Origin: a virus
Length of the DNA stretch: 64,000 nucleotides
Direction: 5' to 3' (one strand)
IMG/VR virus record: IMGVR_UViG_3300042923_001092
Location: 39,092-103,091 of that record
The translations under genes were made by a program, and so were the position numbers. The notes beneath the pieces are model-generated. The model searched no databases, was not told the DNA's origin, and saw only the letters and a list, made by a program, of their open reading frames with translations. Below, in pieces: positions 6,326-38,587 of the stretch (the stretch's first letter is position 1; every line of letters begins with the position of its first letter).

Positions 6326-6328
6326 AGC

Positions 6329-7588: not shown

Positions 7589-7594
7589 GTCTAC

Positions 7595-7624
7595 ATTTAT
7601 TTTTAAATTTCTTAGGATATAATA
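7595..7624 (+). promoter_or_regulatory. Class II (SigF-like) promoter, variant -35
   Basis: ATTTA-N15-GGATATAATA. Confidence 0.55.
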
Positions 7625-7632
7625 TAATTAAG

Positions 7633-7845: not shown

Positions 7846-7855
7846 GGGGTAATAA

Positions 7856-8158: not shown

Positions 8159-8167
8159 GGAGAAAAT

Positions 8168-9029: not shown

Positions 9030-9031
9030 AT

Positions 9032-9205
9032 ATGAAAAGCTCAAAATCTTATTTTAAATTATCTAAACAAGAAAATGTCTTTTGTCCTAAATGTAATAAA
9101 GTAGTATATAGGCTTTCAGACGACAAAAGACAAGATAGTCCAAAATTTTATATATGTTTTGATTGCAAATTTATTGGACATATTGGAGTTGGCCAAGTCA
9201 CTTAA
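9032..9205 (+). CDS. 57-aa zinc-ribbon protein (not in supplied ORF track)
   Basis: Manual translation MKSSKSYFKLSKQENVFCPKCNK...YICFDCKFIGHIGVGQVT; RBS AGGGG. Confidence 0.6.
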   Translation: MKSSKSYFKLSKQENVFCPKCNKVVYRLSDDKRQDSPKFYICFDCKFIGHIGVGQVT

Positions 9206-9242
9206 ATCAAAGAGTAATATGATTCAAAATAAACGTTCTTTT

Positions 9243-9272
9243 GTTAAAAAAAGAAATTATTTTGATATTATT
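9243..9272 (+). promoter_or_regulatory. Class II (SigF-like) promoter
   Basis: GTTAA-N15-TGATATTATT. Confidence 0.7.
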
Positions 9273-9300
9273 ATATTAGGTTATAAAAAGGAGTGACGAA

Positions 9301-11202
9301 ATGGCTGTAAAATTATTAAAACAAAAAAAAGAATTTAATGAACAGCAACAAGAAGTAATAAACCATAATTATGGGGCATGTGTAGTAGTAGCCGTTGCTG
9401 GAGCTGGTAAAACTACAGCTGTTGTTGAAAGAATAAATAGAATGTTAAGAAATGGAATAGCAAGACCAAGTCAGATTTGTGCTACTACATTTACGAAAAA
9501 AGCTGCTGGTGAAATGAATGACAGACTTAAAGCTTTAGGTGTAGATACTGACGAAATGCAAGTTTCTACTTTTCATTCAATTTGTTATAAAATAATGCTC
9601 GAGGAGCTTAAAAAAGTCAAAGCCAAATACGATTTAGATGCCACTGGAAGTAAGTCTAAAGCGCTTTTAAAATATGTATTGGGTTATCAATGTATGGATT
9701 GGAAAACAGCTAATATCAGTGAAGTAGATATGTTTATATCCAATTGTAAAAATTCATTATTAAGACCTAAAGATTTAGATATAAATGTATGTGGTTATTA
9801 TTTAAAACAAGCATATGAGTTATATGAAAAAAATAGAGAAGAAAGACAATTTTTAACATTTGACGATATGCTTATTAGATGTTGGGAAATATTTGATGAA
9901 CATCCAGAAATTTTAAAATATTGGCAATCTAAATTTAAATTTGTAATTGTAGATGAGTTTCAAGATACTAATAAGGCACAATATGAAATAATGAAAATGC
10001 TATCATATCCGGAAAATAATTTAATGGTGGTTGGCGATGATGACCAGTCTATATATAAGTTCAGAGGAGCAGTACCAGAATATATGATTAATTTTGAAAA
10101 TGATTTTAATGCTAGAGTAATAAGGATGGAAAAAAACTATAGATGCCCTCAAATTATTGGTAAATTAGCTAATCCTCTTATTTCTAATAATGAAAAAAGA
10201 TTAATTAAAGTTCTTTCTGCACAAAAACAAAATGAAGGCAATTTAAAAATTATAGATTGTTATGATTTTGACGAGGAAGCTGCTATGGTAACTGAATATA
10301 TAAAATCGTTACCCGAATTTATAAATAAACAGTATGGAAAAATATCAGTTCTATATCGTGCTAATGCCCAATCTAGGGCGATCGAAGATATGCTTATAAT
10401 GGAAAATATACCTTACGAATTAGTTGGTGGTATGAACTTCTATCAAAGAAAAGAAATAAAAGATATATTACATTATTTTTATGCAGCATTTGATTCTCAA
10501 GGCAGGGGCGAGGAGGGATATGAAAGAATTATAAATGTCCCTTTTAGATATATAGGCAAAGCATTTATGGAAGATTTACAAAAATTTAGAAAAAATACTG
10601 GATGTAGCTTTGAAAGAGCCTTAAAAGATATGAGAATGACTCCAAATCAAGAAAGATCTATAGATAGTCTTTTAGATGTTATAGATACTATAAGAAAAAG
10701 AAAGCAAGAAAATCCTCAAATATTGATTTCCTGGTTAGTAAATGAGATTGGCTATTATGATTATCTCGTTAAACAAGAAGGTGATAAAGAAGAAGAAAGT
10801 AGTAGATCTTCTAATATAAAAGAATTGATACGTGCATCTGGTAAATTTAGTACTGTAGAAAAATTTATAGAATATATAGATATGTTAAATACTAAGAAAA
10901 AGAAAAATGGTCCAAAAAATAAAGTTATACTTTCTACTATACATAGATCAAAAGGGCTTGAATGGGATAATGTAATTATAATAGGATTAAACGAATTATT
11001 ACTCCCACATAGCAGGAGTTTAGATCCAGAATCTATTGAAGAAGAAAGAAGACTTGCATATGTAGCTATAACAAGATCAAAAGAAAGACTATTATTAAGT
11101 TTTGTTCAAACTGCATCTGTTGGTGGAGGAATTAGAGAATTAAAGCCTAGTAGATTTATTTCGGAAATGGGATTAGCTGGTAAAGGTAAATATTTATATT
11201 AA
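9301..11202 (+). CDS. pcrA: UvrD/PcrA-family SF1 helicase
   Basis: AVAGAGKTT, TTFTKKAAGEM, VDEFQDTN, VGDDDQSIYKFRGA, STIHRSKGLEW, EERRLAYVAITR. Confidence 0.95.
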   Translation: MAVKLLKQKKEFNEQQQEVINHNYGACVVVAVAGAGKTTAVVERINRMLRNGIARPSQICATTFTKKAAGEMNDRLKALGVDTDEMQVSTFHSICYKIMLEELKKVKAKYDLDATGSKSKALLKYVLGYQCMDWKTANISEVDMFISNCKNSLLRPKDLDINVCGYYLKQAYELYEKNREERQFLTFDDMLIRCWEIFDEHPEILKYWQSKFKFVIVDEFQDTNKAQYEIMKMLSYPENNLMVVGDDDQSIYKFRGAVPEYMINFENDFNARVIRMEKNYRCPQIIGKLANPLISNNEKRLIKVLSAQKQNEGNLKIIDCYDFDEEAAMVTEYIKSLPEFINKQYGKISVLYRANAQSRAIEDMLIMENIPYELVGGMNFYQRKEIKDILHYFYAAFDSQGRGEEGYERIINVPFRYIGKAFMEDLQKFRKNTGCSFERALKDMRMTPNQERSIDSLLDVIDTIRKRKQENPQILISWLVNEIGYYDYLVKQEGDKEEESSRSSNIKELIRASGKFSTVEKFIEYIDMLNTKKKKNGPKNKVILSTIHRSKGLEWDNVIIIGLNELLLPHSRSLDPESIEEERRLAYVAITRSKERLLLSFVQTASVGGGIRELKPSRFISEMGLAGKGKYLY

Positions 11203-11341: not shown

Positions 11342-12082
11342 ATGGAGGAGAAGAAATTTGACGAGTCTAAAATTCTTTTATATAAAGAGACTGGAGACGA
11401 GTCAATATTTGAAGAAATTATTTCAAATAAAGATATAAAGAAATATATATATTCAGTATGTCATGACAAAATGAGGAATTATCCTAGTTCTTTAATGGGA
11501 TTTGATGATTTCGAAAGTCAAGCTTATTTAGTGTTATGGCAATGTATTAAGAAATATAAATTTCGATGTCCAATATGTGGTATTCAAGCTAAAACCGAAT
11601 CGGTATATAAACTTCATATGCTAACAAAACACAATGAATATCGAGAACCAGCAACGAGTATATCTAAATACATAAAGTTTAATCTCGGTGCATATCTTCA
11701 AAATGAATTAAGGAAAGAATATAGTGAAGAAAGAAAGTCTAATATAATGACTGTTAGTATTTATTCCGGCCAAAACAGTGAAGAAAAAGATGAGACTATT
11801 AATGATAGAGTTGAATTTGAATTTTGTCAATCAAATGGTTTTGAAGATGATGTTGTTTTTAAACAATTTTTGAATGATCTTGTCGATAAATTTGATTCTC
11901 AAACAAAAGAGATTTTTATAATGATGTTTTTAGAAAATATGAAACAAATAGATATAGCTAATACTTTATATAGACAAGGAAGATATGCAAGCGAACAATC
12001 GGCTTCTGTAGTAGTCTCTAGGACTATAAAAACTAAAATATATCCTGCTATAACTGAGATATATAGCAAGACTAATATTTAG
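11342..12082 (+). CDS. Phage sigma-70-family factor with inserted C2H2 zinc finger
   Basis: Region 2-like DDFESQAYLVLWQCIKKY...ISKYIKFNLGAYLQNELRKE; region 4-like TKEIFIMMFLENMKQIDIANTL; insert CPICG...KLHMLTKH. Confidence 0.65.
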   Translation: MEEKKFDESKILLYKETGDESIFEEIISNKDIKKYIYSVCHDKMRNYPSSLMGFDDFESQAYLVLWQCIKKYKFRCPICGIQAKTESVYKLHMLTKHNEYREPATSISKYIKFNLGAYLQNELRKEYSEERKSNIMTVSIYSGQNSEEKDETINDRVEFEFCQSNGFEDDVVFKQFLNDLVDKFDSQTKEIFIMMFLENMKQIDIANTLYRQGRYASEQSASVVVSRTIKTKIYPAITEIYSKTNI

Positions 12083-13104: not shown

Positions 13105-13147
13105 GAATGTTTAAGCATCTACATATAATAAATTTTATTTGCTCAAC

Positions 13148-13177
13148 GTTAATAAATGACAAATGAATAATATTATA
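13148..13177 (+). promoter_or_regulatory. Class II (SigF-like) promoter of the nucleotide-modification operon
   Basis: GTTAA-N15-TAATATTATA. Confidence 0.65.
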
Positions 13178-13201
13178 ATATTATATAAAGGAGGTTAAAA
13201 C

Positions 13202-14119
13202 GTGTCTAAATACATAATTGGTGGTGGAATAACTGGATTAATAGCTTCTTTTTATAATCCAGACTATCGAATTATAACAGATAAAATTGGTGGCCAGATG
13301 GCTGCTAATACTGCTGGTCCTAGGATTCTTGAAGTAAATGAATATTCAAGAATGTTTTTAAAAGATTTGGGATTTGAAAACGTAAATACTAAATTTGCTA
13401 AGATTGGATATAAAGTAAGAGGCAAGATAGTAGATTCTATAAGTAAAAGCTTAAGAAATAAATATTATTTAAAATCAAGATGCCTTGATGACGCCAATTT
13501 AATACCAAATTCTATAATGTCAGACGGAAAGAATACTATTGAATATTTTGATATAAGTTGGGATGAAATAATTGAAAGACTTATATCAAATATCAAAAAG
13601 CCAGTAATTAATAAAATAACTTCAATAGACACTGAAGAAAAAATAATCGTTTTAGATGGTCTTCCATTTAGATATGAAAAATTAATATCGACAATTCCTG
13701 CACCGGCTTTTTTTAAAGCATCTAAGCTTAATCCAGAAAAAGAGCTAAAATTTATTCAAAAGGTATTTATCATAGTAGATAGTAGTACCATTGATATGAG
13801 AGAATATGAATATATTTATTATCCAGAATGTCAATACCCATATCATAGGATATCGAAAGTTGGTTCTAATAAGCTTTCGATAGAATTTACTACTAATGAA
13901 GATACATCTAAGATACTTAATTATTGGAAACATATTTCCATACAAAATATAATTATACCAATAGGTCAGATACAATCTGGAATGATTAGTAAAGTTAAAG
14001 ATATATCTTTTTTTGGCAGATACGCTTGCTGGGATCATGATTTAAAAGTTGATGATGTTATTAGGCAGAGCATAGACTATAATGATACAGAAAGGAAAAA
14101 TATTTATGATGGAATATAA
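13202..14119 (+). CDS. FAD-dependent oxidoreductase (UGM/protoporphyrinogen-oxidase-like fold)
   Basis: N-terminal IIGGGITG dinucleotide motif, later IGG, LISTIP, C-terminal FGRYACW. Confidence 0.75.
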   Translation: MSKYIIGGGITGLIASFYNPDYRIITDKIGGQMAANTAGPRILEVNEYSRMFLKDLGFENVNTKFAKIGYKVRGKIVDSISKSLRNKYYLKSRCLDDANLIPNSIMSDGKNTIEYFDISWDEIIERLISNIKKPVINKITSIDTEEKIIVLDGLPFRYEKLISTIPAPAFFKASKLNPEKELKFIQKVFIIVDSSTIDMREYEYIYYPECQYPYHRISKVGSNKLSIEFTTNEDTSKILNYWKHISIQNIIIPIGQIQSGMISKVKDISFFGRYACWDHDLKVDDVIRQSIDYNDTERKNIYDGI

Positions 14120-15059
14120 AGATAAGCTTAAACATATATGGGATGTTCAATTAGACTTTAATAAAAAGTTTTATAAGTCTAAAATAGGTAAAGATATGAA
14201 TGATATGACTATGGAAGAAAAGGTATTTTGGTCAAAAAATCAATTACTTTCTATAGTTAAAGAATCTATGGAAGTACTTGATGAAATTCCTAATTGGAAG
14301 GAGCATAGAAACATAGCTACAGAATTTATACCATCAAATCTTTTTGAAGAGATTATCGATGTTAATAAGTTCTCTTTAGGGCTTGCTCAAATATGGGGTA
14401 TGACTTTCGAGGATTATTATAAAGAATACCTTAGAAAAAGTTGGGTTGTTGATCAGCGTTGGACTCAAGAACATGACTTAAAATCTATAAACGAAGACGA
14501 TAAGATTGTTGGAATAGATATTGATGGAATATTAGGAGATTATCCAAAATGGTTTCTTAAATTTGTTTATGAAAAAACTGGTAAAGAGTTTAATACACTT
14601 GAGCAAGTTAAAAATTGTTTCGGTACTTCGGAATATGAGGGATTAAAGTCTTTATACAGACAGTCAGGATGGAAAGCAACAATGCCTGTTTGTGAACATG
14701 CATCTGAATTTACAAATCTTCTTCATAACAAAGGATATAAAATAATAATACTTACAGCTAGACCTTATAAGGATTATTATACTATTTATCCGGATACATT
14801 ACAATTTCTTAAAGAAAATGAAATATATTTTGATGCTATAATTTGGGATGAAGAAAAACATTTAAGGATTATTAAAGAATTTCCGAAAATGCTTTTTATG
14901 ATTGATGATACACTTGAAGTGGCAGAAGCAGTTGCAGCAGAAGGATATGTTGTATTTTTAAAACAGACAGAGCCTTTTGTCAATATCGATCCTAAATTTT
15001 GGGATAAAATTATTACATTTAGTGACCTATTAGAAATACCCGAAAAATGGAATATATAA
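14082..15059 (+). CDS. Fusion of all-alpha NTP pyrophosphatase (dimeric dUTPase/dCTPase-like) and HAD 5'-nucleotidase (start probably 14106/14109)
   Basis: IVKESMEVLDEIPNWKEH...EEIIDV (EXXE/EXXD helices); IVGIDIDGI, ILTARP, MIDD HAD motifs. Confidence 0.75.
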   Translation: MIQKGKIFMMEYKDKLKHIWDVQLDFNKKFYKSKIGKDMNDMTMEEKVFWSKNQLLSIVKESMEVLDEIPNWKEHRNIATEFIPSNLFEEIIDVNKFSLGLAQIWGMTFEDYYKEYLRKSWVVDQRWTQEHDLKSINEDDKIVGIDIDGILGDYPKWFLKFVYEKTGKEFNTLEQVKNCFGTSEYEGLKSLYRQSGWKATMPVCEHASEFTNLLHNKGYKIIILTARPYKDYYTIYPDTLQFLKENEIYFDAIIWDEEKHLRIIKEFPKMLFMIDDTLEVAEAVAAEGYVVFLKQTEPFVNIDPKFWDKIITFSDLLEIPEKWNI

Positions 15060-15135
15060 ACCATTAGGTGCATTATTTTGAGCTGTCTATAAAGGTTCTA
15101 AATAGGTTAAATTTATTATTGGAAGGGGTTTTAAA

Positions 15136-15582
15136 ATGGCTATTTTATTTTTTGTAGGTGTTGATAAAACAGGTAAAACTACTTTATTAAAAAATGTTTT
15201 AAAAGAAACTAATCGTCATATATGTATTGATAGATTTACTCCATGTCAAGTAGTATACGGAAGAATACATGATAAAAAAGACACACCAAAAGTTAAAGAA
15301 TTTAGAGAATTAGAAACATTTTTACGATATTCTCCTATACCAGCTGCATTTGTTTATGTGTCAGCAGAGACAGATATGATAATAAAAAGATTTAAGCAGC
15401 ATGATGAAAAAGATATAGATATTAGTCAAATAAGTATTGTTAAAATTTTATATGATCAGTACTTAAGTTCATCTCCGCTACCATGTTTACGTATTGATAC
15501 AACCGGAGACTCAATAGAAAAATGCACTAATACGATTATCGAGTTTGCAGATAGGCTTGATAGAAAGGAGATTTATATATGA
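15136..15582 (+). CDS. Nucleoside-monophosphate kinase (Tmk-like, second paralogue)
   Basis: P-loop GVDKTGKTT, IDRF motif. Confidence 0.75.
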   Translation: MAILFFVGVDKTGKTTLLKNVLKETNRHICIDRFTPCQVVYGRIHDKKDTPKVKEFRELETFLRYSPIPAAFVYVSAETDMIIKRFKQHDEKDIDISQISIVKILYDQYLSSSPLPCLRIDTTGDSIEKCTNTIIEFADRLDRKEIYI

Positions 15583-16595
15583 AAGCAAAATTAGGGCTTG
15601 GTGGATATTTTACAGACACCAAAGACAATCCAGCTTCCATTATAAGATATGCTTATGATTTTGGTGGAGTAAGATTTTTTGATACTTCACCAGTATATGG
15701 AACTAGTGAGCAAATTTTTGGACATGCACTAAAAGATTATCCAAGAGAATCTTATGAACTTTCAACAAAAACAAAAGCTAAAACTGTTGAAGAGCTTCAT
15801 TCTTCGTTTTTACAAAGCTTATTTAATCTTAACACTAATTATATAGATATGTATTTTGGTCATTCAGCTATAGATGATGATAATACATGGAAAGATTTTC
15901 AAAAGATAATAAATGAACTTTTAAGATTAAAGTCAATCAATTATATCAAAAAGATTGGAGTATCTGGACATTCTGTTTCTGCAGCTATAAAAGCGATAAA
16001 CAGTGGTTTGATTGATGTTATAATGGTACCTCATTCTATAATGTACAGAAAATTTGAAGGAGTGATTCAATTAGCTAAGTCCAAAAACATAGAAGTAATT
16101 ACTATGAAAAACTTTGCTAGTGGAATATTGCTTGGTGGTCCGGATACTAATGAATATAAAAAAGACGTATCAATGCAGGATATTATCAATTTTTCTTCTT
16201 ATTGCGGAGATATAATAATACCAACTCCAAGATCTATTAATCAATTTAAAGAAATAAGTAACTGTTATCTAAATGCAGCTGAACTTAATACATCTAAATT
16301 AATTAATATAGAAAGTAAGATAATAAAACATCTTGGCACGGATTTTTGCAGATTTTGTAATGAATGCAGACCCTGCCCTAAGCATGGATGGCAAATGTCA
16401 CAACCAAGCATCTTAAAGGCAATGTTATATCAGTCAAAGTTAGGAATAGATGGAAAAGAAAGATATTCTAATTTTGCTTATAATGTAAATCATTGCGAAG
16501 GATGTGATAGCGAATGCTCGCATATGTGCCCTTTTGGTATAGATATTAAAGAAAAAATGCAAAATGCACACAACATTTTTACAGGAGGAAAATAA
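15579..16595 (+). CDS. Aldo/keto reductase with C-terminal 4Fe-4S dicluster
   Basis: FFDTSPVYG.SE, STKT, YID.Y..H, KKIGVSGH; CRFCNECRPCP and CEGCDSECSHMCP. Confidence 0.85.
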   Translation: MKAKLGLGGYFTDTKDNPASIIRYAYDFGGVRFFDTSPVYGTSEQIFGHALKDYPRESYELSTKTKAKTVEELHSSFLQSLFNLNTNYIDMYFGHSAIDDDNTWKDFQKIINELLRLKSINYIKKIGVSGHSVSAAIKAINSGLIDVIMVPHSIMYRKFEGVIQLAKSKNIEVITMKNFASGILLGGPDTNEYKKDVSMQDIINFSSYCGDIIIPTPRSINQFKEISNCYLNAAELNTSKLINIESKIIKHLGTDFCRFCNECRPCPKHGWQMSQPSILKAMLYQSKLGIDGKERYSNFAYNVNHCEGCDSECSHMCPFGIDIKEKMQNAHNIFTGGK

Positions 16596-17663
16596 ATGGA
16601 TGTAGTTAATGAAAAAGCAGCTAAAAAAATATTGCCATATGTAAAGTCAATAGAAAATGGTACTATAAAAGGCCCAATTTCGTTGCACTTATTAATAACT
16701 GACTTTTGTGTTAATAAGTGCAACATGTGTGGACATTGGAAGACTAAATGCAAAAAAAGTTTAAGTCTTGATGTTATAAAAAACATTTGGTCAGAGATGA
16801 ACGAAAATGATTGTGAATCAGTTTGTCTTACTGGCGGAGATCCAATTTTGCATCCAAATTTTGAGGAAATATTAGATCTTAAAAGAAATTTTGACCTTGG
16901 TGTTATTTGTACCGGAAATTTTAATCCAAAATTTGATTTTGAAAAGCTTTCCAAACTTAAATGGTTACGCTTTTCTATTGATTCTTTAAACCTTGATAGA
17001 TATATGGAAATAAGAGGTTTGAGTAATTTATATTCAGTTATAATTCCTAATCTTATAAAGGCTAAGAATTATATAGATCAGGTCGGTATAAATTTCACTA
17101 TACAAAAGAAAAATATTATGGATGTAAGAGATATTGTAAAATTTGCTTATAATGAAGAAATTTATAGACTTATGATATATCCAATGCATGGTGATAGTGA
17201 CTTATGCTTAAATTCTGAAGATATTAAAGTTGTTTTAGAACAATTAAGAGAAGTAATTAAGTACGGATTTCATAAAGAAATACCAGAAAATAATATTGTA
17301 TTTTTGTATCAAAGTTTAAAAGCAGCTTTAGAAAAAGACACTGAAGTAAGAAAAGCAGTTTTTGATTATTCTAAATATCCTTGTATTATAAATAAAATAC
17401 ATTTATCTGTAGGTTCTGATGGAAATGTATTTCCTTGTGAAATGATTGCAGATGATACAGATGCATATGGAGAAAGAGATTTTTGGGATACACATTCACA
17501 TTATAATAGTCTTGGAAACGTGAATGAAGAAAGTTTGATGAAAATATGGAAAAATAATTTTGACAACTCCTTTTGTTCCGGAAAATGTGAAAATTGCTTC
17601 AGTAGATATTTACCTATTAATAAAGCTTATTATGAAAATATTGGAAAGAGGATATTTATATGA
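16596..17663 (+). CDS. Radical SAM enzyme with SPASM/twitch domain
   Basis: CVNKCNMC (CX3CX2C), LTGGDP, FSIDSL, C-terminal GSDGNVFPC...CSGKCENC. Confidence 0.9.
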   Translation: MDVVNEKAAKKILPYVKSIENGTIKGPISLHLLITDFCVNKCNMCGHWKTKCKKSLSLDVIKNIWSEMNENDCESVCLTGGDPILHPNFEEILDLKRNFDLGVICTGNFNPKFDFEKLSKLKWLRFSIDSLNLDRYMEIRGLSNLYSVIIPNLIKAKNYIDQVGINFTIQKKNIMDVRDIVKFAYNEEIYRLMIYPMHGDSDLCLNSEDIKVVLEQLREVIKYGFHKEIPENNIVFLYQSLKAALEKDTEVRKAVFDYSKYPCIINKIHLSVGSDGNVFPCEMIADDTDAYGERDFWDTHSHYNSLGNVNEESLMKIWKNNFDNSFCSGKCENCFSRYLPINKAYYENIGKRIFI

Positions 17664-17962
17664 GAATAACAGGTATATATAGTCCATTAAAAATATATTT
17701 TGATCTTGGTGGCCAGATGGCTGGTAAGAGATGTTTTACATTATGCAAAGATACTTATTCTGAAAACGACAGGTATACTATTTGGCTTGATGGTTCCAGA
17801 TTAAAATGCAAAAGAGAACAGATAATAGATACAATGAATGAACATTTAAGAATAATTGACAAAAATGTTAAATTGTCTAATGAACAAATTGACTTTATTA
17901 ATGAAATAATAAAAAATCATAAATTCGAAATGAATTATTATTTTGCGATAGAAACAATTTAA
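17660..17962 (+). CDS. Hypothetical protein in the modification operon
   Basis: ATGA-coupled to the radical SAM gene. Confidence 0.6.
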   Translation: MRITGIYSPLKIYFDLGGQMAGKRCFTLCKDTYSENDRYTIWLDGSRLKCKREQIIDTMNEHLRIIDKNVKLSNEQIDFINEIIKNHKFEMNYYFAIETI

Positions 17963-17970
17963 TTTTAGAC

Positions 17971-18000
17971 GTTAATAAATGATTCTAATATGATATAATA
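17971..18000 (+). promoter_or_regulatory. Class II (SigF-like) promoter
   Basis: GTTAA-N15-TGATATAATA. Confidence 0.75.
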
Positions 18001-18028
18001 TTATTATAAAACAATAAAGGAGGAAATA

Positions 18029-19075
18029 ATGGAAAACTCAATTCAAAAAATAAATGAATTAAGAAGTGTTATGGGAACTTTACCAGATCAGGACCCGCAG
18101 CTTAAAACTGAATTTATTAAGGGCGTTACTGGAATTTCAGTTGAACTTATCGGAACAGTAGAAAATCCGTATAAGCCGATGTTTATATTAGGGACTACAT
18201 GCTGGGGTAAGAAAGTTAATAAATGGGAAGAAACATTACCCGAACACAGGTTTGAAGTAGTAAAGGCGGCTTTAAGGGGTCAGGCATTACCTCTTGCATT
18301 GGAAACTCCTCAGTTTTCATTTGCTATTGAAGGTCCATCAAGAGCGGCATTTGATCAGATTGCAAGAGCAAGGCTTGGTGTTGTATTTTCTGCCAGAGGT
18401 ATGAGAGATAATAATTGGAAAGACGCTTCAATTCGTATTCCGACTTCTTTGTGGCCTACAAAAAAAGAAGATATTTTGCATGATGAATATCTTCTTGATG
18501 GCAAAAGAAGCGATGAACATAATAATGCTTATATAAAGGTTGAAAACTTTAAAAATATAGAAATTACAATGCTTGAAGTAAAACAACTTTACGCTGATAT
18601 TGTAGATGTTGGAAAAGGTTCTTGGCAGGCTGCAAGGAGCGTATTGCCTTTATATGTAGTTTATGGTTTTTCAATGGGAATTAATTTCCAAGCATTAAGA
18701 AGCTTATGCAGCTCAAGAATGAAATTTTGCGAAATGGAAGATACAGTTGCAGTAGCATGGCTTTTAGCAAAAGCAGTATCTGAAAAATTCCCTTTACTTG
18801 GTTCTTATTTAAGACCCGGATGTGACTGGTCTGGTAAATGTCAGTACCATAAAGCTTATTCTTTATCTGAAATGTTCGGTTGTTTATTTAAAGAATGTGG
18901 CAGAAACGAATGCACCGATACAAATGATTATGCAGAATTTAATGAAACATGTACAAATTATCGTGATCTTGAGGAACAGCTTGGTATTCATATTACAAGG
19001 CCAAATGAGTGGCCTAAATTTGAAAATTTCGATGATTTGTCGGATATAGATAAAGCATTATTTATGCAGGATTAA
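18029..19075 (+). CDS. Divergent ThyX-fold flavoprotein (catalytic motif altered)
   Basis: FSFAIEGPSRAAFDQIARARLGVVFSARGMRD and AARSVLP...INFQALRSLCSSR map onto the ThyX scaffold, but RHR..S....SxRY is not intact. Confidence 0.7.
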   Translation: MENSIQKINELRSVMGTLPDQDPQLKTEFIKGVTGISVELIGTVENPYKPMFILGTTCWGKKVNKWEETLPEHRFEVVKAALRGQALPLALETPQFSFAIEGPSRAAFDQIARARLGVVFSARGMRDNNWKDASIRIPTSLWPTKKEDILHDEYLLDGKRSDEHNNAYIKVENFKNIEITMLEVKQLYADIVDVGKGSWQAARSVLPLYVVYGFSMGINFQALRSLCSSRMKFCEMEDTVAVAWLLAKAVSEKFPLLGSYLRPGCDWSGKCQYHKAYSLSEMFGCLFKECGRNECTDTNDYAEFNETCTNYRDLEEQLGIHITRPNEWPKFENFDDLSDIDKALFMQD

Positions 19076-19079
19076 TTTT

Positions 19080-19117
19080 AAGGTGTGGCTATAGATTAAT
19101 AGTTTATACCACACCTT
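19080..19117 (+). terminator. Stem-loop after ThyX-like gene (terminator or processing site)
   Basis: AAGGTGTGG...CCACACCTT with inner TATAGA/TTTATA pairing. Confidence 0.55.
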
Positions 19118-19186
19118 AATTAACTTATTATAGAAGATTAGTCGCTTTATTTTAATAGTATTAATCTTCTATAATAAGTTAATTAA
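19116..19186. repeat. Perfect 25-bp inverted repeat, 21-nt spacer
   Basis: TTAATTAACTTATTATAGAAGATTA (19116-19140) / TAATCTTCTATAATAAGTTAATTAA (19162-19186). Confidence 0.95.
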
Positions 19187-19210
19187 AATAAAGAAATGGA
19201 GAAATAGATT

Positions 19211-19759
19211 ATGCATGGATTAGGTTTAAGACAAATGATAGAAAATCTTGAAACTTTTATAGTTGAAAAAGGAAAACCTGTTGTTGTAGACAATCAGGGA
19301 ACTATAGAAGTTTTAAATCATAGTTTCAATATTACTTATAATAGTATTATTGATATTGAAGATATACAAAAGCATATGAAAGATTATTATGACGTAAATG
19401 GTATTGATTATTCTAAAATTGAGGAACTTGAAAAAAATGAATATTCGTTAATCGAAAACGAACTTTATAGCAAGTTTGCTTTATTCAATGATGATATTCA
19501 TTCAAGAAGGGTCCTTTGGTCTGATGATTGCTGTATCAGTTTAATTCATTATCTCATCCGGGATAAGAAAATCTATTGCTTTGTTCATTTAAGAAGTTCT
19601 GACATCGTAAATAAGTTATTTTCTGATCTATTTTTAATTCATAAGATAACAAGGCAACTTCAGGATGATCTTGATATTAAAGATGTTAATATTTGTGTAA
19701 ACGGTCACAGCATGCACAAGCTGGTATTAAACAATATGAACAAGTGTAAAAATGAGTAA
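19211..19759 (+). CDS. Short thymidylate-synthase/dCMP-hydroxymethylase-fold protein, dCMP-type Asp
   Basis: DDCCISLIHYLIRD, RSSDIVNKLFSDL, GHSMH correspond to the TS PC, RSxDxxxGxPxN and H motifs, with N replaced by D. Confidence 0.75.
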   Translation: MHGLGLRQMIENLETFIVEKGKPVVVDNQGTIEVLNHSFNITYNSIIDIEDIQKHMKDYYDVNGIDYSKIEELEKNEYSLIENELYSKFALFNDDIHSRRVLWSDDCCISLIHYLIRDKKIYCFVHLRSSDIVNKLFSDLFLIHKITRQLQDDLDIKDVNICVNGHSMHKLVLNNMNKCKNE

Positions 19760-22700
19760 GTTCTGCCCAAAAATTAATGGCCCTGTAGTCTATCTCGATT
19801 GCCTTGAGTGTGACTACAGGGTTTGTGTTAAAGGAGGAAAAGAATTGGCAAAGATAATAAAAAAAATAAAACAACCAGAACAAGAGGTACCAGACAAAAA
19901 GGTAAAAAAAATTAAATCGTCTGAAATAGATGAACAAGTAAAAGAAGCTAAAAAAAATATTCGACAAAAATCAGTACCTGTTATGGAGTCAAAATATTCT
20001 GGTATAATAAAACCAAGAAATGTGGCTATCCCAACTCGAGACCTAATTCAATTTATTCCGGAACATATACATACAGATTATTCAACAAAAGATGCTGCTA
20101 TGTCTATTGATGAATATATTGAGTCACTTAAAGAAATGGGATTTAAAGGTGGTACAATTACTGAACATGGAAATATGTCAAGTTCAGTAAAGTTTTATAA
20201 AGCTATGAAGGCTAATGGGCTTAAACCTATTTTAGGTAATGAAATCTATACGGATGATAATATCGAGCTTAAAATAGAGGCTTCATTAGAAAGGTCAAAG
20301 AGGAAAAAGGACGATGAGGCAGCAGAAGGTGGATATTTGGATGATGAGTATGGTCATCTTGTAGTATTAGCTCCAACTAATGAAGCTTATAATGAATTAT
20401 TATTAACTACTGCTAAAGGATTTAGAGATGGTTTTTATAAGAGGCCAAGAGTTACACACGAATGGATTTTAAATGAAGCTTCAAAACACCAGATTACCAC
20501 TACAGCCTGCCTTGCATCGAAGTTTAATTATTATATAAGGTGCGGCCAGGATAAGGAGGCTAAACAGCTTCTTAGTGATTATAAGTCAGCTTTTGGTGAT
20601 AGGTTTTATGCTGAACTTCATTTTAATGAATTAGAAATACAAAGATATTGTACTAATAAGTTATTAGAATTTTGCAAAGAACTTAAAATACCTTGGATGA
20701 TTGGTCTTGATGCACATTATGCAAAAAAAGAACATGCTGAGTATCATGACTATATGAAAGATATGTTTTATAAGGGTTCATTATCTAAACCATCTTCTTT
20801 AAGATATAATACTAGAGAATTATATCTTAAAAATTCAAATGAAGTTCTTCATTCAGCACTAAAATGGGACTATGGAATTGATCAAAAAGATATAATAATT
20901 GGATTGAATAGAACTAATGAATTATACGATAGAACAACATTTGAAATGGAAATGGGAAAGTTAAGGTTTCCAAAATTTAGTAATGATCCTAATTTTGATC
21001 CAGTAGCAGAGTTAAAAAAGAAATGTATAAGAGGATATAATAAAAGAAAGAAACAAGGATTACTTCCTGCACCGGGATATGCAGATCAAGACTATAAGGA
21101 TAGGTTTAATAAAGAATTTCCAGTAATAGTTAGTAAAGGTTATGCTGATTACTTTTTAATAGTTTCTGAATATACAGATTATTGTGTACAGACTGAATTA
21201 TTTAAAGGTCCCGGAAGAGGTAGTGCTGCAGGTGCTTTGATTTCTTGGTTGCTTGATATTACTAAGATTGACCCTATAAGATATGGACTATTCTTTGAAA
21301 GGTTTCTTAATGAAGAACGTGCTGATCCACCAGATATTGACCTCGATTTTGATTCTGAAAGAAGATTTGAAATTGAAGAACTTTTAATAAGAAAAAATGG
21401 TCCAGAAAAGGTTGCTCACATTATGTCATTTGGTACATGGGGATGTAAAAGTATTCTTGGAGAATTATCAAAAGTATTTGAACTTCCTTGGGGTGTTGTA
21501 GATAAACTTAAAAAATTATGTAATGATGATCAATCGCTGCAGGAAAATATTGATAGAATATTAGGAATAAAGCCAGTTAAAAAGATAAAGAAAGATGGTA
21601 CAGTGCAAGAAATATTTGAAATACCATCTCCAGATATAAAGGAGTTTATTGAGAATAATGAAAAATTCTTTACTGTATGTAAATTTTTTGAAGGTAAAGT
21701 TAGGAACTATTCAATGCATGCTTCTGGTGTAGTTGTAACTCCAGGACCTATGGAAGAACTTGCTCCAATAAACAGAGCTTCTGGGCAAATAGTTACTGGT
21801 CTTCAAGAAGGTGGAGATATAAGAGAAATATCAGATATAGGGTTACTTAAATTTGATATTTTGGGTCTTAATAACTGTACTATAGTTAATAGGACTTTAA
21901 AGTCTATTAAAAGAAGAAAAGGCATAACCATTGATATAGATGCTATTGATCTTGAAGACGATAATTTATTAGAAAGATTTAGAAAAGGGCATACAACGGG
22001 AATATTTCAGTTTGAGTCTACCGGTATTACTAAATTTATGAAAGATATTCAGCCACAAAGACTTGAAGATTTAATTATAGTTAATGCTGCTTATCGACCA
22101 GGTACATTAAGAGCTGGTGGTGTTGATGCTATCATAGAAAATAGGCATTCAGATAATATTGATTATATGCATCCAGCTATTGAAGAAGTTTTAGGTCCAA
22201 CATATAATGTTTTAGTTTATCAAGAACAGCAGATGGCTTTAATGGCTCAAGTTGGTGGATTTACAATGGTTGAAGCTGATAAATCTAGGAAGACTATTAA
22301 GTTAATTAATAAAGCTTCTACTGCTTCACCAGAACAGTTAAAGAAATTTTATGATATGATCGAGCATTTTAAGCAAGGTGCTCATGAAAAAACTGGACTC
22401 TCGCATGAAAAATTACAAAAGCTTGTTGATGCAATGGCTGCGGCTGCTGACTATTCATTTAATAAATCTCATAGTTGTAGTTATGCTATTATAGCAATGC
22501 AGGATATGTATTTGAAGCATTATTATCCAGCTGACTATGCAGCTGCTTTCCTAAGTAGGACTAAAAATGAAGAAAAGAAAGGTAAAGCAGGACATAAGAC
22601 TGGGGAGAACAAAATTGAAAAATATGTAAAAATGGCAATAATTGAAATGGATTTAAACATTGCTCCTCCGGATGTTTCAATTTCTGGAGTAGATTGGATA

Positions 22701-23441
22701 CCTAAAGACGATAAGACTATAATACCTTCATTAACTTTTATTAAAGGTGTTGGTGAAGCTGCAGTTCCTCAAATTGTTAAGCACCAGCCATATGCCACTT
22801 TAGAGTCATTCTTTGAATGTGATATGGATTGGAGGTTAGTTAATAAAAGGGTTGTTGAAGCATTAATCCAGACAGGGTCTTTTAACAATCTATATCCGTA
22901 TAGGAAAACATTATTGGAGGTATATACAAAGTGGAATGCTGCTGGTAAAAAGAACTTTTCAAAAATACTTGAAAAAGTAGAAAATGAAATGGGTCAAGTT
23001 GATATAGACTTTGACGAGGGAATGATTATTGAAAAAGAATTATTTGGATTTTATTTCAGTGCTAATCCATTAGACAAATATAAAGAAATTGTAAAAGAAA
23101 GAGAAATAAAAGAAGTAAGTGACTTAGCAAAAGGTAAGAAATGGAAAAAAGGGACACTTTATGGAATAATTACTAAAGCATTTCCATATAAGATTGCAAA
23201 AGGTAACATGTGTTTTGTAGATATACAAGGAAAAGATGAAACAAAAGCAAATATTACAGTTTGGCCAGAAATATATGAACAATATAAAGATATTATAAAA
23301 GAAGGAAATGTAGTCGCTATAAAAGTCAAACCCGGTAAAGGTAAAAATGATGAACCTTGTTTTTATGTTGATGAAAGCGACGAGCGAAAGAAGGTAATCT
23401 TAATGGAGCAATTATTAAAAATTAAATCAAAGCAACGTTAA
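19752..23441 (+). CDS. dnaE: DNA polymerase III alpha subunit (family C) with PHP domain
   Basis: HIHTDYS, TEHGN, GPGRGSAAG, FERFLN..R.DPPDIDLDF, GLLKFDILGL, YSFNKSHS. Confidence 0.97.
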   Translation: MSKFCPKINGPVVYLDCLECDYRVCVKGGKELAKIIKKIKQPEQEVPDKKVKKIKSSEIDEQVKEAKKNIRQKSVPVMESKYSGIIKPRNVAIPTRDLIQFIPEHIHTDYSTKDAAMSIDEYIESLKEMGFKGGTITEHGNMSSSVKFYKAMKANGLKPILGNEIYTDDNIELKIEASLERSKRKKDDEAAEGGYLDDEYGHLVVLAPTNEAYNELLLTTAKGFRDGFYKRPRVTHEWILNEASKHQITTTACLASKFNYYIRCGQDKEAKQLLSDYKSAFGDRFYAELHFNELEIQRYCTNKLLEFCKELKIPWMIGLDAHYAKKEHAEYHDYMKDMFYKGSLSKPSSLRYNTRELYLKNSNEVLHSALKWDYGIDQKDIIIGLNRTNELYDRTTFEMEMGKLRFPKFSNDPNFDPVAELKKKCIRGYNKRKKQGLLPAPGYADQDYKDRFNKEFPVIVSKGYADYFLIVSEYTDYCVQTELFKGPGRGSAAGALISWLLDITKIDPIRYGLFFERFLNEERADPPDIDLDFDSERRFEIEELLIRKNGPEKVAHIMSFGTWGCKSILGELSKVFELPWGVVDKLKKLCNDDQSLQENIDRILGIKPVKKIKKDGTVQEIFEIPSPDIKEFIENNEKFFTVCKFFEGKVRNYSMHASGVVVTPGPMEELAPINRASGQIVTGLQEGGDIREISDIGLLKFDILGLNNCTIVNRTLKSIKRRKGITIDIDAIDLEDDNLLERFRKGHTTGIFQFESTGITKFMKDIQPQRLEDLIIVNAAYRPGTLRAGGVDAIIENRHSDNIDYMHPAIEEVLGPTYNVLVYQEQQMALMAQVGGFTMVEADKSRKTIKLINKASTASPEQLKKFYDMIEHFKQGAHEKTGLSHEKLQKLVDAMAAAADYSFNKSHSCSYAIIAMQDMYLKHYYPADYAAAFLSRTKNEEKKGKAGHKTGENKIEKYVKMAIIEMDLNIAPPDVSISGVDWIPKDDKTIIPSLTFIKGVGEAAVPQIVKHQPYATLESFFECDMDWRLVNKRVVEALIQTGSFNNLYPYRKTLLEVYTKWNAAGKKNFSKILEKVENEMGQVDIDFDEGMIIEKELFGFYFSANPLDKYKEIVKEREIKEVSDLAKGKKWKKGTLYGIITKAFPYKIAKGNMCFVDIQGKDETKANITVWPEIYEQYKDIIKEGNVVAIKVKPGKGKNDEPCFYVDESDERKKVILMEQLLKIKSKQR

Positions 23442-23487: not shown

Positions 23488-24192
23488 ATGCGAGTTATTA
23501 AACCATCGTTTGAAATTAAACGCAATTTGAGTGGGGAAGAAATTTTAAAGAATATTGAAAGAGCTGGCAGGATTTGTTATAAATCCGAAGATTTAATAAC
23601 TTCAGATTCTGCAAAAAAATTTGTAAAAGGCCTTTTAAATAGAGGCCATGAAGCAATGATCGAACATGCTTTTGCTACCGTTATTATAGTTTGTGATAGA
23701 GGAGTTTCTCATGAAATTGTTCGCCATAGAGTTGCATCATATGCTCAGGAAAGTACAAGATATTGCAATTATGGAAAAGAAAAACATGATCAGGAATTGA
23801 AATTTATTGATATAGGACCAGTTATTGATAGTAAAATTGGTACTACAGTAAAAGATTCAAATGGTGAAAATGTTCTGGTAACAGGTGATTTAGCAGCTTC
23901 ATGGATTATAAGCTGGCTTGATTCAATAGCTGATTCAGAAATAGCATACATGAATATGGTAAATTCAGGATGTCCTGCAGAACTTGCAAGATCAGTTCTT
24001 CCTAATTCAATAAAAACAGAAATAGTTGTCACAATGAATTTAAGAGAATGGCGACATTTCTTTAAGCTTAGGGCTATAGGTACAACGGGAAAACCTCATC
24101 CTCAAATGGTAGAAATAGCTAAACCTTTATTAAGGGAAATGGCTGAATACATACCAGTTGTATTTGACGATCTTATTGAATTGATTAGTTAG
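23488..24192 (+). CDS. thyX: Canonical flavin-dependent thymidylate synthase ThyX
   Basis: GHEAMIEH, EIVRHRVASYAQESTRY, ARSVLPNS, NLREWRHFFKLR. Confidence 0.95.
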   Translation: MRVIKPSFEIKRNLSGEEILKNIERAGRICYKSEDLITSDSAKKFVKGLLNRGHEAMIEHAFATVIIVCDRGVSHEIVRHRVASYAQESTRYCNYGKEKHDQELKFIDIGPVIDSKIGTTVKDSNGENVLVTGDLAASWIISWLDSIADSEIAYMNMVNSGCPAELARSVLPNSIKTEIVVTMNLREWRHFFKLRAIGTTGKPHPQMVEIAKPLLREMAEYIPVVFDDLIELIS

Positions 24193-34711: not shown

Positions 34712-34948
34712 ATGGCAAAATATTGTATTCATCCAGGAGTTACTATTAGCAAGAATGATGGTCAATTTCATTATATTTCTTCATCAAGACTTATAAGTTT
34801 ATATGGGGTAAATCCATCCGATTGTATTATAAGTTCATGTGATGAAAGAAACCCCAAAAGATATCCAGAAAATATAATTCATTTATATCCAGATTATAAA
34901 GGTAATTATGATTTAAAGGAGGTTTTACGTGAAAATAATAGTCCTTGA
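34712..34948 (+). CDS. Hypothetical protein
   Basis: Co-directional ORF with RBS. Confidence 0.6.
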   Translation: MAKYCIHPGVTISKNDGQFHYISSSRLISLYGVNPSDCIISSCDERNPKRYPENIIHLYPDYKGNYDLKEVLRENNSP

Positions 34949-35549
34949 AGGGATTGATAAATGTGGAAAAGCTACACAAACAAAAGAATTAGCTTTAAGA
35001 TTGAGTCAAGCAGGATTTAAAACGCAAGCATCTGAATTTCATAGATATGATACACAGACCGGAAAAATGATTCAAGATTGGCTATTTGGAAAGTTTGAAT
35101 GTGATACTTATACTATGGAATTAATTATGGCTGCAGACAAACAACTTCAACAGTATTGGTTTAATGAACTTGAAAATCAAGGATATGACTTTCTTATATT
35201 AGATAGGTATACATTAAGTCAAGAGATTTATGCAACATATAAAAAAGTAAATCAAATATGGTTATATTCTATAATGACATATTTGAAAAAACCTTATGCT
35301 GAAATATTAATAGATATTCCTGCTGAACTAAGTATGTCCAGAAAACCCAAATATGGTACCAATAATAATATTCAGGATGACAGGCATGAAAAGGATTATA
35401 ATTTGCTAAACAGCGTTAGAGATCTTTATTTAAAGGCTTGTAATCATAATCATTTCGATATAAAACGGACAATAATTGATGGAACTCAGACAGTTGACAA
35501 TGTCAGCGATGATATTTGGAATTATGTTAAAAATTTATTCAAAATATAA
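34929..35549 (+). CDS. tmk: Thymidylate kinase
   Basis: IVLEGIDKCGKATQ, ILDRY, ILIDIP. Confidence 0.9.
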   Translation: MKIIVLEGIDKCGKATQTKELALRLSQAGFKTQASEFHRYDTQTGKMIQDWLFGKFECDTYTMELIMAADKQLQQYWFNELENQGYDFLILDRYTLSQEIYATYKKVNQIWLYSIMTYLKKPYAEILIDIPAELSMSRKPKYGTNNNIQDDRHEKDYNLLNSVRDLYLKACNHNHFDIKRTIIDGTQTVDNVSDDIWNYVKNLFKI

Positions 35550-38101: not shown

Positions 38102-38587
38102 ATGGAAGAAAGAATAAGCTGGGATAATTATTTCTTATTAATTTCTAAAGTAGTTTCCTCTAGAGCAACATGTTTTAGTGAACCTAAAGGAGCAGTAATT
38201 GTCGTAAATAAGAATATTGTATCTACCGGATATAATGGGGCTCCTAGCGGTATTAAAGATTGTAAGTATGGATATAAAGAGTGTAAAAAAAGATCATTAG
38301 GTTATGGTCATGGTACTGGGCATCATATATGTCTCGCGTCACATGCTGAAGCAAACGCAATTGATCATGCAGCTAAAAATGGAATTTCTATAAATGGTGG
38401 CACGCTATATTGCACTCATAAACCATGTTCTGAATGTGCAAAACACATTATTAATTCCGGAATAATAAGAGTAGTTTATATTAATGAATACGAATCAAAC
38501 GCTTTTGAACTTTTTAATGAAGCCGGTATTGATTGTGTAAAGTCTAAAGATTTTGATTTAATTGAAATGTTAAATCAAATCAAATAA
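38102..38587 (+). CDS. dCMP deaminase
   Basis: WDNYF, STGYNGAP, HAEANAI, PCSECAK. Confidence 0.93.
   Translation: MEERISWDNYFLLISKVVSSRATCFSEPKGAVIVVNKNIVSTGYNGAPSGIKDCKYGYKECKKRSLGYGHGTGHHICLASHAEANAIDHAAKNGISINGGTLYCTHKPCSECAKHIINSGIIRVVYINEYESNAFELFNEAGIDCVKSKDFDLIEMLNQIK

Follow-up and report, generated by a model that had tools for sequence, protein, structure and literature searches.

A candidate phage module for modified pyrimidine nucleotides, built around a ThyX-like enzyme and lying beside a DnaE-type replicase

A cluster of eight genes, here called g1 to g8, ends in an overlap with the DNA polymerase gene dnaE in a viral genome recorded in IMG/VR (IMGVR_UViG_3300042923_001092). 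The record comprises 107,581 bp with direct terminal repeats and about 29% GC; the stretch that we analysed, referred to as the window, is the 64,000-nucleotide part at bases 39092-103091. A first-pass annotation of the window had proposed that the cluster encodes a pathway for DNA base hypermodification, probably on cytosine. All eight open reading frames (ORFs) were present where it had placed them, and its domain calls were all confirmed or sharpened (Table 1). The cluster is this genome's version of a phage module that is conserved widely and has no characterised member; the signature gene of this module is g7, which encodes a ThyX-like enzyme.

The genes of the cluster and their predicted products

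The AlphaFold2 (AF2) model of g7 (predicted local distance difference test, pLDDT, 88) matched T. maritima ThyX in Foldseek with target-normalised template modelling (TM) scores of 0.70-0.75, and PolB with 0.71. In sequence, g7 scored only 27 bits against the ThyX equivalog model TIGR02170, the cutoff of which is 87.9. Residues were compared using an alignment of the family to M. tuberculosis ThyX together with a 22-sequence family alignment. Instead of the ThyX motif RHRx7-8SxRY, g7 reads RAR...G-M-R-D (RAR being RTR in part of the family), and five residues of M. tuberculosis ThyX are exchanged in all 22 aligned members: His96 to Ala, Ser105 to Gly, Tyr108 to Asp, His91 to Asp and Glu92 to Gln. 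The Ser-Arg pair, the outer two arginines of RHR, the Arg of SxR, the QAARxVLP segment and the last Arg were kept. Residues that are invariant throughout the family include R105, D109, Q110, R113, R115, G124, R126, D127, R203, R230, C265, C271, C285, C290 and C308. The fold, the phosphate and base arginines and the Q-A-A-R-x-V-L-P segment are common to g7, to ThyX (PF02511; TM0449 and the M. tuberculosis enzyme) and to PolB, a neofunctionalised ThyX relative that is the UMP/dUMP C5-methylase of polyoxin biosynthesis, whereas RAR or RTR, the Gly and Asp in place of Ser and Tyr, the Asp-Gln in place of His-Glu and a C-terminal extension with five cysteines set g7 apart from ThyX. We take the retained arginines to be those that hold the dUMP phosphate and the uracil carbonyls in ThyX structures, and for this reason g7 is read as an enzyme that would still bind a uracil-type mononucleotide and would perform a different chemistry at C5.

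The C-terminal extension of g7 spans about 90 residues, and its five Cys residues are invariant. It was modelled at a pLDDT of only 60-73, as might be expected for a metal site. Predicting a complex of g7 with g1 yielded a score of 0.01, which counts neither way. Two variants of the gene were seen in related loci. The ThyX-like gene of L023 (9986-11431) is interrupted by an intein precisely within RMKF|CE, a motif invariant in the family, so that the conserved Cys follows it as residue +1; such a position is typical of a functionally critical site; the neighbouring DnaE gene (L023:5734-9957) also has an intein-like insertion. In L033 (10001-11459) and about 30 other loci of a marine clade, the ThyX-like gene is represented by a tandem pair of paralogous ORFs, about 271 and 240 amino acids (aa) long, of which the first has neither the arginine motif nor the Cys tail, and the second keeps both RAR and the Cys-rich domain. 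This arrangement suggests a heteromeric enzyme.

The best solved relative of g8, a small protein of thymidylate synthase (TS) fold, was the T4 dCMP hydroxymethylase (gp42), which was matched at 2e-4 by g8 alone and at 1.8e-12 by its family profile. PF00303 did not match g8 itself; it matched a 218-aa relative at 1.7e-11. The two proteins are in register at the catalytic Cys (SDDCC/SDFMC), at the acidic residue three positions before it, and at RSSD/RSND and the Asp that takes the place of ThyA Asn177; Cys148, the preceding acidic residue and Asp179 of gp42 are all aligned. The catalytic Cys, Arg and Ser were conserved in at least 90% of 21 family members, and 20 of the 21, including g8 of the window, carry Asp at the position of ThyA Asn177. 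TS homologues with this Asn177-to-Asp exchange act on dCMP (Lee et al., NAR 2026, PMC13326640), and a further exchange, Asp169 to Asn (D169N), is diagnostic of flavin- and O2-dependent 5-hydroxy-dCMP synthases (PMC13326640). The window g8 does not carry the latter exchange: it reads RSSD and keeps Asp169, as do the relatives L071 and L077, while the residue is Glu in a close relative (L003/L076) and Asn in eight relatives of a clade described below. With 182 aa as compared to 246-264 (246 in gp42), g8 is missing part of the folate side, and its aligned part consists of the C-terminal half (residues 89-167 aligned to gp42 131-218) plus a short N-terminal stretch.

The flavoprotein g1 had no Pfam match when used alone, and neither g1 nor any of the 25 relatives scanned matched Pfam GLF. 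A profile of 26 family members matched UDP-galactopyranose mutase (UGM) in the PDB at 8e-8 over about 95 residues. Similarly, the AF2 model (pLDDT 92) had UGMs as its best Foldseek matches (E 5e-14, query-normalised TM 0.66-0.71), followed by protoporphyrinogen (PPO) and amine oxidases and renalase. The target-normalised TM to UGMs was lower (0.42-0.52), the full three-domain UGM architecture is absent (305 aa versus about 365-510 aa for real UGMs), and renalase (319 aa) matched the model almost as well as UGM did. No partner glycosyltransferase for a UGM was found: the genome has no family 1 glycosyltransferase (GT1), and no glycosyltransferase came up among the scanned ORFs, which included 49 further ORFs of the window and the structural half that were scanned with Pfam, or in a whole-genome search with PF00534. 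The first-pass annotation had likewise seen no glycosyltransferase in the window. A 353-aa ORF at 39817-40878 was considered as a candidate and rejected, as it encodes a viral hypothetical protein whose structural neighbours in the Atlas are not glycosyltransferases.

For g2, single-sequence searches returned Pfam dUTPase_2 (0.007) and PHROG 173, 415 and 420. With the family profile, the first half matched dimeric all-alpha dUTPases (2.4e-5) and the second half a 5'(3')-deoxyribonucleotidase (PDB 3bwv, 1.5e-3). The HAD DxD (D146/D148) and the acidic metal-binding motifs were invariant in the family. The N-terminal half is nearest to dimeric dUTPases, and its base specificity is not readable from sequence. 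A tblastn search with g2 found only HAD nucleotidases of actinophages. The next gene, g3, had been called an NMP kinase, with T4 gp1 as its counterpart in the T4-type scheme. A gp1-like type was not borne out, as its family profile matched SPbeta YorR (7.9e-19) and then thymidylate kinases (about 1e-7), and T4 gp1 (1dek/1del) was not among the PDB matches. The P-loop G-x-D-x-x-G-K was invariant in the g3 family.

The two following genes encode Fe-S enzymes. The Cys motifs of g4, an aldo-keto reductase (AKR) with an added iron-sulphur (FeS) domain, are CRFCNECRPCP and CEGCDSECSHMCP (CxxCxxCxxxCP and CxxCxxxCxxxCP), both ending in CP, and its full-length homologues carry Fer4_17 and Fer4_9. Fusions among these homologues are tandem AKR-FeS repeats or TPR fusions and are uninformative as to function. 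In related phage contigs g4 was always paired with g5, a radical SAM (rSAM) enzyme with CxxxCxxC at residues 38-45 (C38-x3-C42-x2-C45). Protein g5 fell below every NCBIfam equivalog cutoff (best 62.5 bits versus 380); its distant neighbours, all far below cutoff, include MoaA and viperin, which act on nucleotides, as well as cofactor and peptide maturases. The g5 family has 28 proteins with at least 47% identity, and all three contigs with inspected gene context were phage-like. A tblastn search with g5 returned nothing but one uncultured 735-kb phage, present in two copies and matched at 25% identity, and single-sequence scans of IMG/VR with g4 and g5 found the close relative only.

The small ORF g6 had no tblastn match in any relative tested, including the closest one (L003), and it is probably outside the pathway. 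Relatives carry other small genes in this slot; in L072 (11125-11337) a Tad2-like (anti-Thoeris) gene lies between the rSAM and ThyX-like genes, and the slot may collect anti-defence genes.

Nearly every ORF of the window is on the + strand, so that the common direction of g1-g8 is uninformative by itself. Neighbouring genes are spaced as follows: g1 and g2 overlap by 38 nt, g3 and g4 by 4 nt, g5 and g6 by 4 nt, and g8 and dnaE by 8 nt; g4 and g5 abut; and gaps of 76, 66 and 135 nt separate g2 from g3, g6 from g7, and g7 from g8, respectively. A common promoter-like motif (ACGTTAAT, a spacer, then a GATATAAT-like element) could be aligned 5' of g1, g7, thyX and three other genes. Its presence before g1, g7 and thyX suggests two putative, co-regulated transcription units, g1-g6 and g7-g8-dnaE.

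Table 1. Features of the cluster and of related genes in the window (positions are those of the window; L003, L071 and L072 are related phage loci)
Feature	Coordinates	Strand	Supporting matches and remarks
Promoter-like motif ahead of g1 (putative)	13146..13186	+	ACGTTAAT, spacer, TATTATAAT-like; consensus scan site 13149-13184
g1, compact 305-aa flavoprotein with GxGxxG Rossmann motif, nearest UGM	13202..14119	+	Family profile, AlphaFold, Foldseek
g2, fusion of all-alpha (dimeric dUTPase/MazG-like) NTP pyrophosphatase and HAD 5'(3')-deoxyribonucleotidase	14082..15059	+	Pfam, PHROG, family profile
g3, minimal P-loop nucleotide kinase, YorR/thymidylate-kinase-like	15136..15582	+	Family profile against PDB
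g4, AKR with C-terminal two-cluster ferredoxin-like domain, COG1453 type	15579..16595	+	PF00248 2.8e-25
g5, rSAM enzyme with SPASM/twitch auxiliary-cluster domain	16596..17663	+	PF04055 2.6e-12; PF13186 6.1e-8
g6, 100-aa ORF in variable slot	17660..17962	+	No family match
Promoter-like motif ahead of g7, second copy (putative)	17969..18005	+	Alignment; consensus scan site 17972-17999
g7, ThyX fold with rewired active-site motif and C-terminal five-Cys domain; module signature gene	18029..19075	+	PF02511 3.8e-12
g8, minimal 182-aa TS fold with dCMP-type active-site signature	19211..19759	+	PDB matches
dnaE, DNA polymerase III alpha-type replicase; syntenic anchor of module	19752..23441	+	79% identity to L003 copy; syntenic in L071, L072
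Canonical ThyX (ordinary dTMP synthesis)	23488..24192	+	TIGR02170 4.8e-38, 130.8 bits (cutoff 87.9); RHR...S.RY motif intact
Canonical thymidylate kinase (Tmk)	34929..35549	+	PF02223 1.8e-23 over full length
dCMP deaminase (supplies dUMP)	38102..38587	+	PF00383 8.7e-22

Conservation and variation of the module across phages

The g7 family gave 241 matches in a 5.8-billion-protein collection, mostly on phage-sized contigs, and its ESM Atlas clusters were 88-100% viral. Among 185,579 species genomes it was found on only two contigs of metagenome-assembled genomes (MAGs), of about 100-111 kb, which are probably binned phages and thus provide no cultured lysogen. Megablast with the cluster and blastn with a marine homologue found nothing among 50,697 GenBank phage records. 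Neither a ThyX-like protein whose tail is rich in Cys nor the g1-g8 gene combination was found described in the literature, in agreement with the earlier remark that the set is not recognisable from any characterised pathway.

To define the module, 64 IMG/VR loci and five further contigs were fetched and all of their flanking ORFs were clustered; 40 whole viral records were then searched, eight of which, at least 90% complete, are termed near-complete. Along with the ThyX-like gene, g1 occurred in 36 of 40 records (8/8 near-complete), a g8-type TS-fold gene in 32 (5/8), and a short-chain dehydrogenase/reductase (SDR) resembling RmlD in 30 (6/8). GT1 glycosyltransferases were present in only 10 of the 40 (1/8) and were confined to a single marine subclade. 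The g2 gene adjoins the ThyX-like gene in 47 of 66 loci, and a g3-type kinase usually co-occurs with it as well. Co-conservation of the gene neighbourhood had been set beforehand as a test of the proposal, and these counts bear it out: the cluster is more than a chance arrangement because it is conserved across phages. The idea of a single eight-gene pathway must, however, be narrowed. The ThyX-like gene, g1 and g2 form the universal core, g8 is missing in three of the eight near-complete records, the AKR and rSAM genes are lineage-specific, and g6 is not conserved.

The usual gene order is g1, g2, (dUTPase), a small ORF, the g3-type kinase, the SDR, (g8), DnaE and the ThyX-like gene. In the clade of the window (L003, L071 and L072; 39-75% identity) it is g1, g2, g3, AKR, rSAM, ThyX-like, g8 and DnaE. 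The AKR and rSAM genes thus lie directly 3' of the kinase, at the position held by the SDR in the other lineages. The two near-complete records without the SDR are L003, a close relative with AKR and rSAM instead, and L005. The closest PDB match of the SDR is dTDP-4-dehydrorhamnose reductase (2.6e-13). As the slot of the SDR after the kinase is taken by AKR and rSAM, we infer that the latter pair might be a non-orthologous replacement, in which oxygen-sensitive enzymes would take over a carbonyl-reducing step. Such an exchange between oxic and anoxic settings is in keeping with two observations: the D169N (O2-dependent) variants of g8 are confined to the SDR clade, and one AKR/rSAM contig was binned with a Thermosipho MAG. 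The lineage of the window probably comes from anoxic habitats.

In every lineage the module lies among replication genes, and the phages that carry it use DnaE or PolA replicases. They come from soil, wastewater and marine waters (marine as judged from the look of the sample sets). Genes for dCMP deaminase, dUTPase and ribonucleotide reductase (RNR) flank the module in many loci; the dCMP deaminase family was near it in 19. Besides the window phage, five other records, from separate lineages, have a canonical ThyX gene beside the ThyX-like one, and three of these are 100% complete. This coexistence argues against redundancy of the two genes.

A uracil-DNA glycosylase (UDG) domain was seen fused to, or beside, the replicative polymerase of some relatives (L009/L011 DnaE, 6141-9941; L007:13469-15375; L071:2704-3291). 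Such an arrangement has been linked to phages with T-modified genomes (PMC13697223). No UDG match was found in the genome of the window phage.

Genome setting

The window is the replication and nucleotide-metabolism half of the phage genome; the rest of the record holds a myovirus structural module (portal, ClpP-type protease, capsid, sheath and baseplate). Genes of the window encode helicases, DnaB, primase, UvrD, DnaE, RecA, an SbcCD-like pair, a flap nuclease, ligase, SSB, sigma factors and a NusG-like protein. The homologues of DnaE have PHP, DNA_pol3_alpha and HHH_6 domains. Canonical ThyX, Tmk and dCMP deaminase are encoded separately from the cluster, as had been stated (Table 1).

Some neighbouring genes are worth recording. 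Directly 3' of the dCMP deaminase gene, a 223-aa ORF (38592-39263) had a weak match, below cutoff, to nucleoside 2-deoxyribosyltransferases (0.0069); L007 has an unambiguous member of this family close to its module. An 8-oxoguanine-glycosylase-like gene, unusual in a phage, is located between those for DnaB helicase and primase (5492-6325; OGG_N 2.7e-25 plus HhH-GPD). A 338-aa protein (49352-50368) has an N-terminal PemK/MazF-like toxin domain (4e-10) and a long C-terminal part without assignment. Genes at 8403-9029, 11342-12082, 50386-51105 and 33869-34390 comprise DUF1256 (YyaC-like and sporulation-associated, 2.5e-42), the NusG-like gene and at least one gene for a phage sigma factor, a second candidate being weaker. 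The DUF1256, sigma factor and NusG-like genes, the 29% GC and the Fe-S and rSAM enzymes point to a host that would be an anaerobic, spore-forming Firmicute.

In the whole genome (G000, 107,581 bp), GAATTC was depleted about 4-fold (10 observed versus 37.6 expected). CATG (0.69), GATC (0.79) and CTAG were also moderately depleted, and CCGG was 2-fold over-represented (139 versus 69).

Interpretation and competing explanations

The cluster combines an NTP pyrophosphatase, a TS fold with the cytosine-type Asp and a kinase beside a replicative polymerase; in this respect the proposal first made, a nucleotide-level modification module of T4-like logic, was supported. The reading that we favour, and to which we give somewhat better than an even chance, is that the module carries out pre-replicative synthesis of one or two C5-modified pyrimidine dNTPs, to be incorporated by the adjacent DnaE. 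The steps would be as follows: g2 would hydrolyse a canonical pyrimidine dNTP, first to the dNMP and then to the nucleoside, clearing the competitor from the pool; g7, with reduced flavin, would put a one-carbon-derived, non-methyl group on C5 of a uracil-type dNMP, and its invariant Asp, Gly and Ala in place of the reducing and the Tyr/Ser/His residues of ThyX could allow the exocyclic methylene to be trapped by water or some other nucleophile; g8 would activate dCMP through its Cys to yield a 5-substituted dCMP, presumably as a hydroxymethylase-like enzyme in the window phage because Asp169 is kept, and as a 5-hydroxylase-like (D169N) enzyme in many oxic relatives; the YorR-like kinase g3 would phosphorylate the modified dNMP; and the UGM-like g1 and a carbonyl reductase would tailor an intermediate, the reductase being g4 with g5 here and the RmlD-like SDR in other lineages. 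The earlier attribution to cytosine would then hold for only one branch, in that g8 has the cytosine signature while g7 keeps both base arginines of ThyX, pointing to a uracil-type substrate. A more far-reaching version is that of a second, flavin-based route to modified bases, in which g7 and g1 install the non-methyl C5 group, g8 alters a second pyrimidine, and g4 and g5 provide O2-independent tailoring, with a new DNA base, found throughout a widespread group of uncultured phages, as the outcome. We put this forward tentatively, as a possibility with less than an even chance.

Several features of T4 cytosine replacement are shared with the window phage, namely an all-alpha NTP pyrophosphatase, a TS fold nearest to gp42, a dedicated kinase, a dCMP deaminase and a separate thymidylate synthase. 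The T4 kinase, however, is of the gp1 type, the pyrophosphatase of the window forms one fusion protein with a nucleotidase, there are four additional redox enzymes, and no glycosyltransferase was found. The nearest known gene sets are the 5-hydroxycytosine (5hoC) clusters of RB69, DLP3 and RL38J1, in which a TS homologue with the Asn177-to-Asp exchange is accompanied by a Tmk/YorR-like kinase, a HAD phosphatase and a dCTPase, and in RL38J1 also by a UGM, which serves galactofuranosylated 5hoC (PMC13326640). The 'nucleotide kinase' of the DLP3 5-hydroxy-dCMP cluster had YorR (3kb2) as its top Foldseek match, and the RB69 and RL38J1 counterparts matched thymidylate kinases (PMC13326640). The TS/kinase/HAD/dCTPase set is alike, and the eight g8 relatives with D169N carry the diagnostic residue of these systems. 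In contrast, the window g8 keeps Asp169, g1 is a truncated UGM-like protein, and neither a glycosyltransferase nor a sugar kinase/nucleotidyltransferase or arabinose isomerase was seen in the window phage; conversely, the RB69, DLP3 and RL38J1 pathways have no ThyX-like, AKR-FeS or rSAM components.

A second resemblance is to phages with 5-hydroxymethyluracil (hmU) in their DNA. SPO1 and phi-e induce a dTTPase/dUTPase, a dTMP nucleotidase, a dCMP deaminase, a dUMP hydroxymethylase and an hmdUMP kinase, a set of activities that matches g2, the deaminase, g7 and g3. However, the known hmU synthases have the ThyA fold and g7 has the ThyX fold, and the canonical ThyX and Tmk kept by the window phage would be needless if T were fully replaced. 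Among the post-replicative pathways of thymidine hypermodification (ViI, M6 and PaMx11), those of the ViI and M6 types also use rSAM and flavin enzymes (PMC8989533). No cluster protein matched 5-HMU DNA kinase or aGPT-Pplase in the Pfam and PHROG scans, although the genome was not searched with those specific models. Marker families of the 7-deazaguanine and 2-aminoadenine pathways were matched in no scan, and both pathways were set aside, as was an RNR substitute, since a 3'-keto route is not in keeping with the chemistry.

Several points weigh against synthesis of modified dNTPs. None of the genes of the cluster has a known product, substrate or activity, no cultured phage carries the g7 family, and tblastn with g7 against the GenBank phage records was empty. 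Assignment of the Cys domain of g7 is limited by a region modelled at pLDDT 60-73 only, and g8 is short of about 65 residues of the folate-binding region of ThyA (the segment with Glu58, Trp80 and Trp83). The avoidance of restriction sites (GAATTC, CATG and GATC) is not expected with a bulky group on every C or T. In addition, more than 200 relatives assemble from ordinary short-read metagenomes; their DNA is not refractory to sequencing, and a bulky group on every C or T is therefore unlikely. Phages with ordinary DNA, SPbeta among them, can likewise encode YorR-like kinases and NT5C-type nucleotidases, so that g2 and g3 are not specific markers. Finally, in three near-complete genomes tested for both families (G002, G003 and G005) the ThyX-like gene is the only gene of the ThyX family and no ThyA gene was found, and the ThyX-like gene could simply encode the thymidylate synthase of these phages.

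This last point leads to the explanation that the module serves ordinary nucleotide-pool metabolism and canonical DNA, with g7 as a divergent but genuine thymidylate synthase, perhaps using another reductant via its Cys-rich domain, g3 as a dTMP kinase, g2 as a house-cleaning dUTPase/nucleotidase, and g1, g4 and g5 (or the SDR) in electron supply or cofactor repair. That ThyA was found in none of the five records tested, that dCMP deaminase, dUTPase and RNR genes flank many module loci, and that the genome avoids restriction sites are all in its favour, as is the case of SPbeta, with YorR, a nucleotidase and ordinary DNA. Yet it leaves unexplained why canonical ThyX is kept beside the ThyX-like gene in the window phage and five other records, and why the window phage has a canonical Tmk besides g3. 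Furthermore, no aligned member of the g7 family retains the RHR His or the signature Ser or Tyr, the g7 score is far under the equivalog cutoff, an SDR or AKR gives hydride to substrates and is no electron carrier for a flavoenzyme, and no dTMP pathway needs the cytosine-type Asp of g8. On balance, we consider ordinary metabolism unlikely. An origin of the cluster in sugar chemistry is, for the window phage, quite improbable. Here, as in RL38J1, RB69 and DLP3, the modified base would be a glycosylated 5-hydroxy- or 5-hydroxymethyl-cytosine, for which g8 would supply hydroxylated dCMP; g1 with the SDR or AKR/rSAM would make an unusual NDP-furanose or deoxysugar, the HAD part of g2 would be a sugar-phosphate phosphatase, and an unrecognised transferase would decorate the DNA after replication. 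The nearness of g1 to UGM in sequence and fold, that of the relatives' SDR to dTDP-4-dehydrorhamnose reductase, the D169N variants of g8 and the composition of the known 5hoC clusters (with the UGM of RL38J1) would all fit, and in one marine subclade GT4 glycosyltransferases lie about 5 kb downstream; for that subclade the sugar pathway is more plausible than for the window phage. But GT1 genes are rare in the records in which g1 is nearly constant (1/8 versus 8/8 of the near-complete ones), neither a glycosyltransferase nor a nucleotidyltransferase was seen among the scanned ORFs of the window phage, g1 is shorter than UGMs and has no GLF match, and the pathway has no role for the ThyX-like enzyme, its best-conserved member.

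A third alternative is that the product is a free, nucleotide-derived small molecule that never enters DNA and acts as an inhibitor of a host enzyme, or as a decoy or antagonist of a nucleotide-based defence signal. MoaA and viperin, the distant relatives of g5, modify free nucleotides, g1 resembles renalase, a dinucleotide oxidase, and a Tad2-like anti-defence gene occupies the variable slot in one relative. We regard this as very improbable, because in all lineages the module is embedded between the replicase and genes of nucleotide supply, because its NMP kinase and dNTP-clearing fusion would suit the provision of substrates to a polymerase, and because every known enzyme of the ThyX or TS fold acts on deoxynucleotide monophosphates.

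Under the favoured reading of modified pyrimidine dNTP synthesis, the logic of the module is known in kind, and its central enzymes are known from no characterised pathway. The characterised pre-replicative pyrimidine modifications of phages (5hmC, 5hmU, 5mC and 5hoC, that is, hydroxymethyl-, methyl- and hydroxy-substituted C or U) all start from an enzyme of the ThyA fold, whereas this module has a ThyX fold with a rebuilt active site, which all near-complete genomes examined combine with an orphan flavoprotein resembling UGM. The apparent exchange of an NAD(P)H reductase for an AKR-FeS protein plus an rSAM enzyme would represent a clear oxic versus anoxic non-orthologous replacement within one viral pathway. 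If a new base is made, the known chemistry of natural DNA would grow, new flavin, radical SAM and Fe-S nucleotide enzymology would come with it, and the modified dNTP would be relevant both to the evasion of restriction and CRISPR and to biotechnology.

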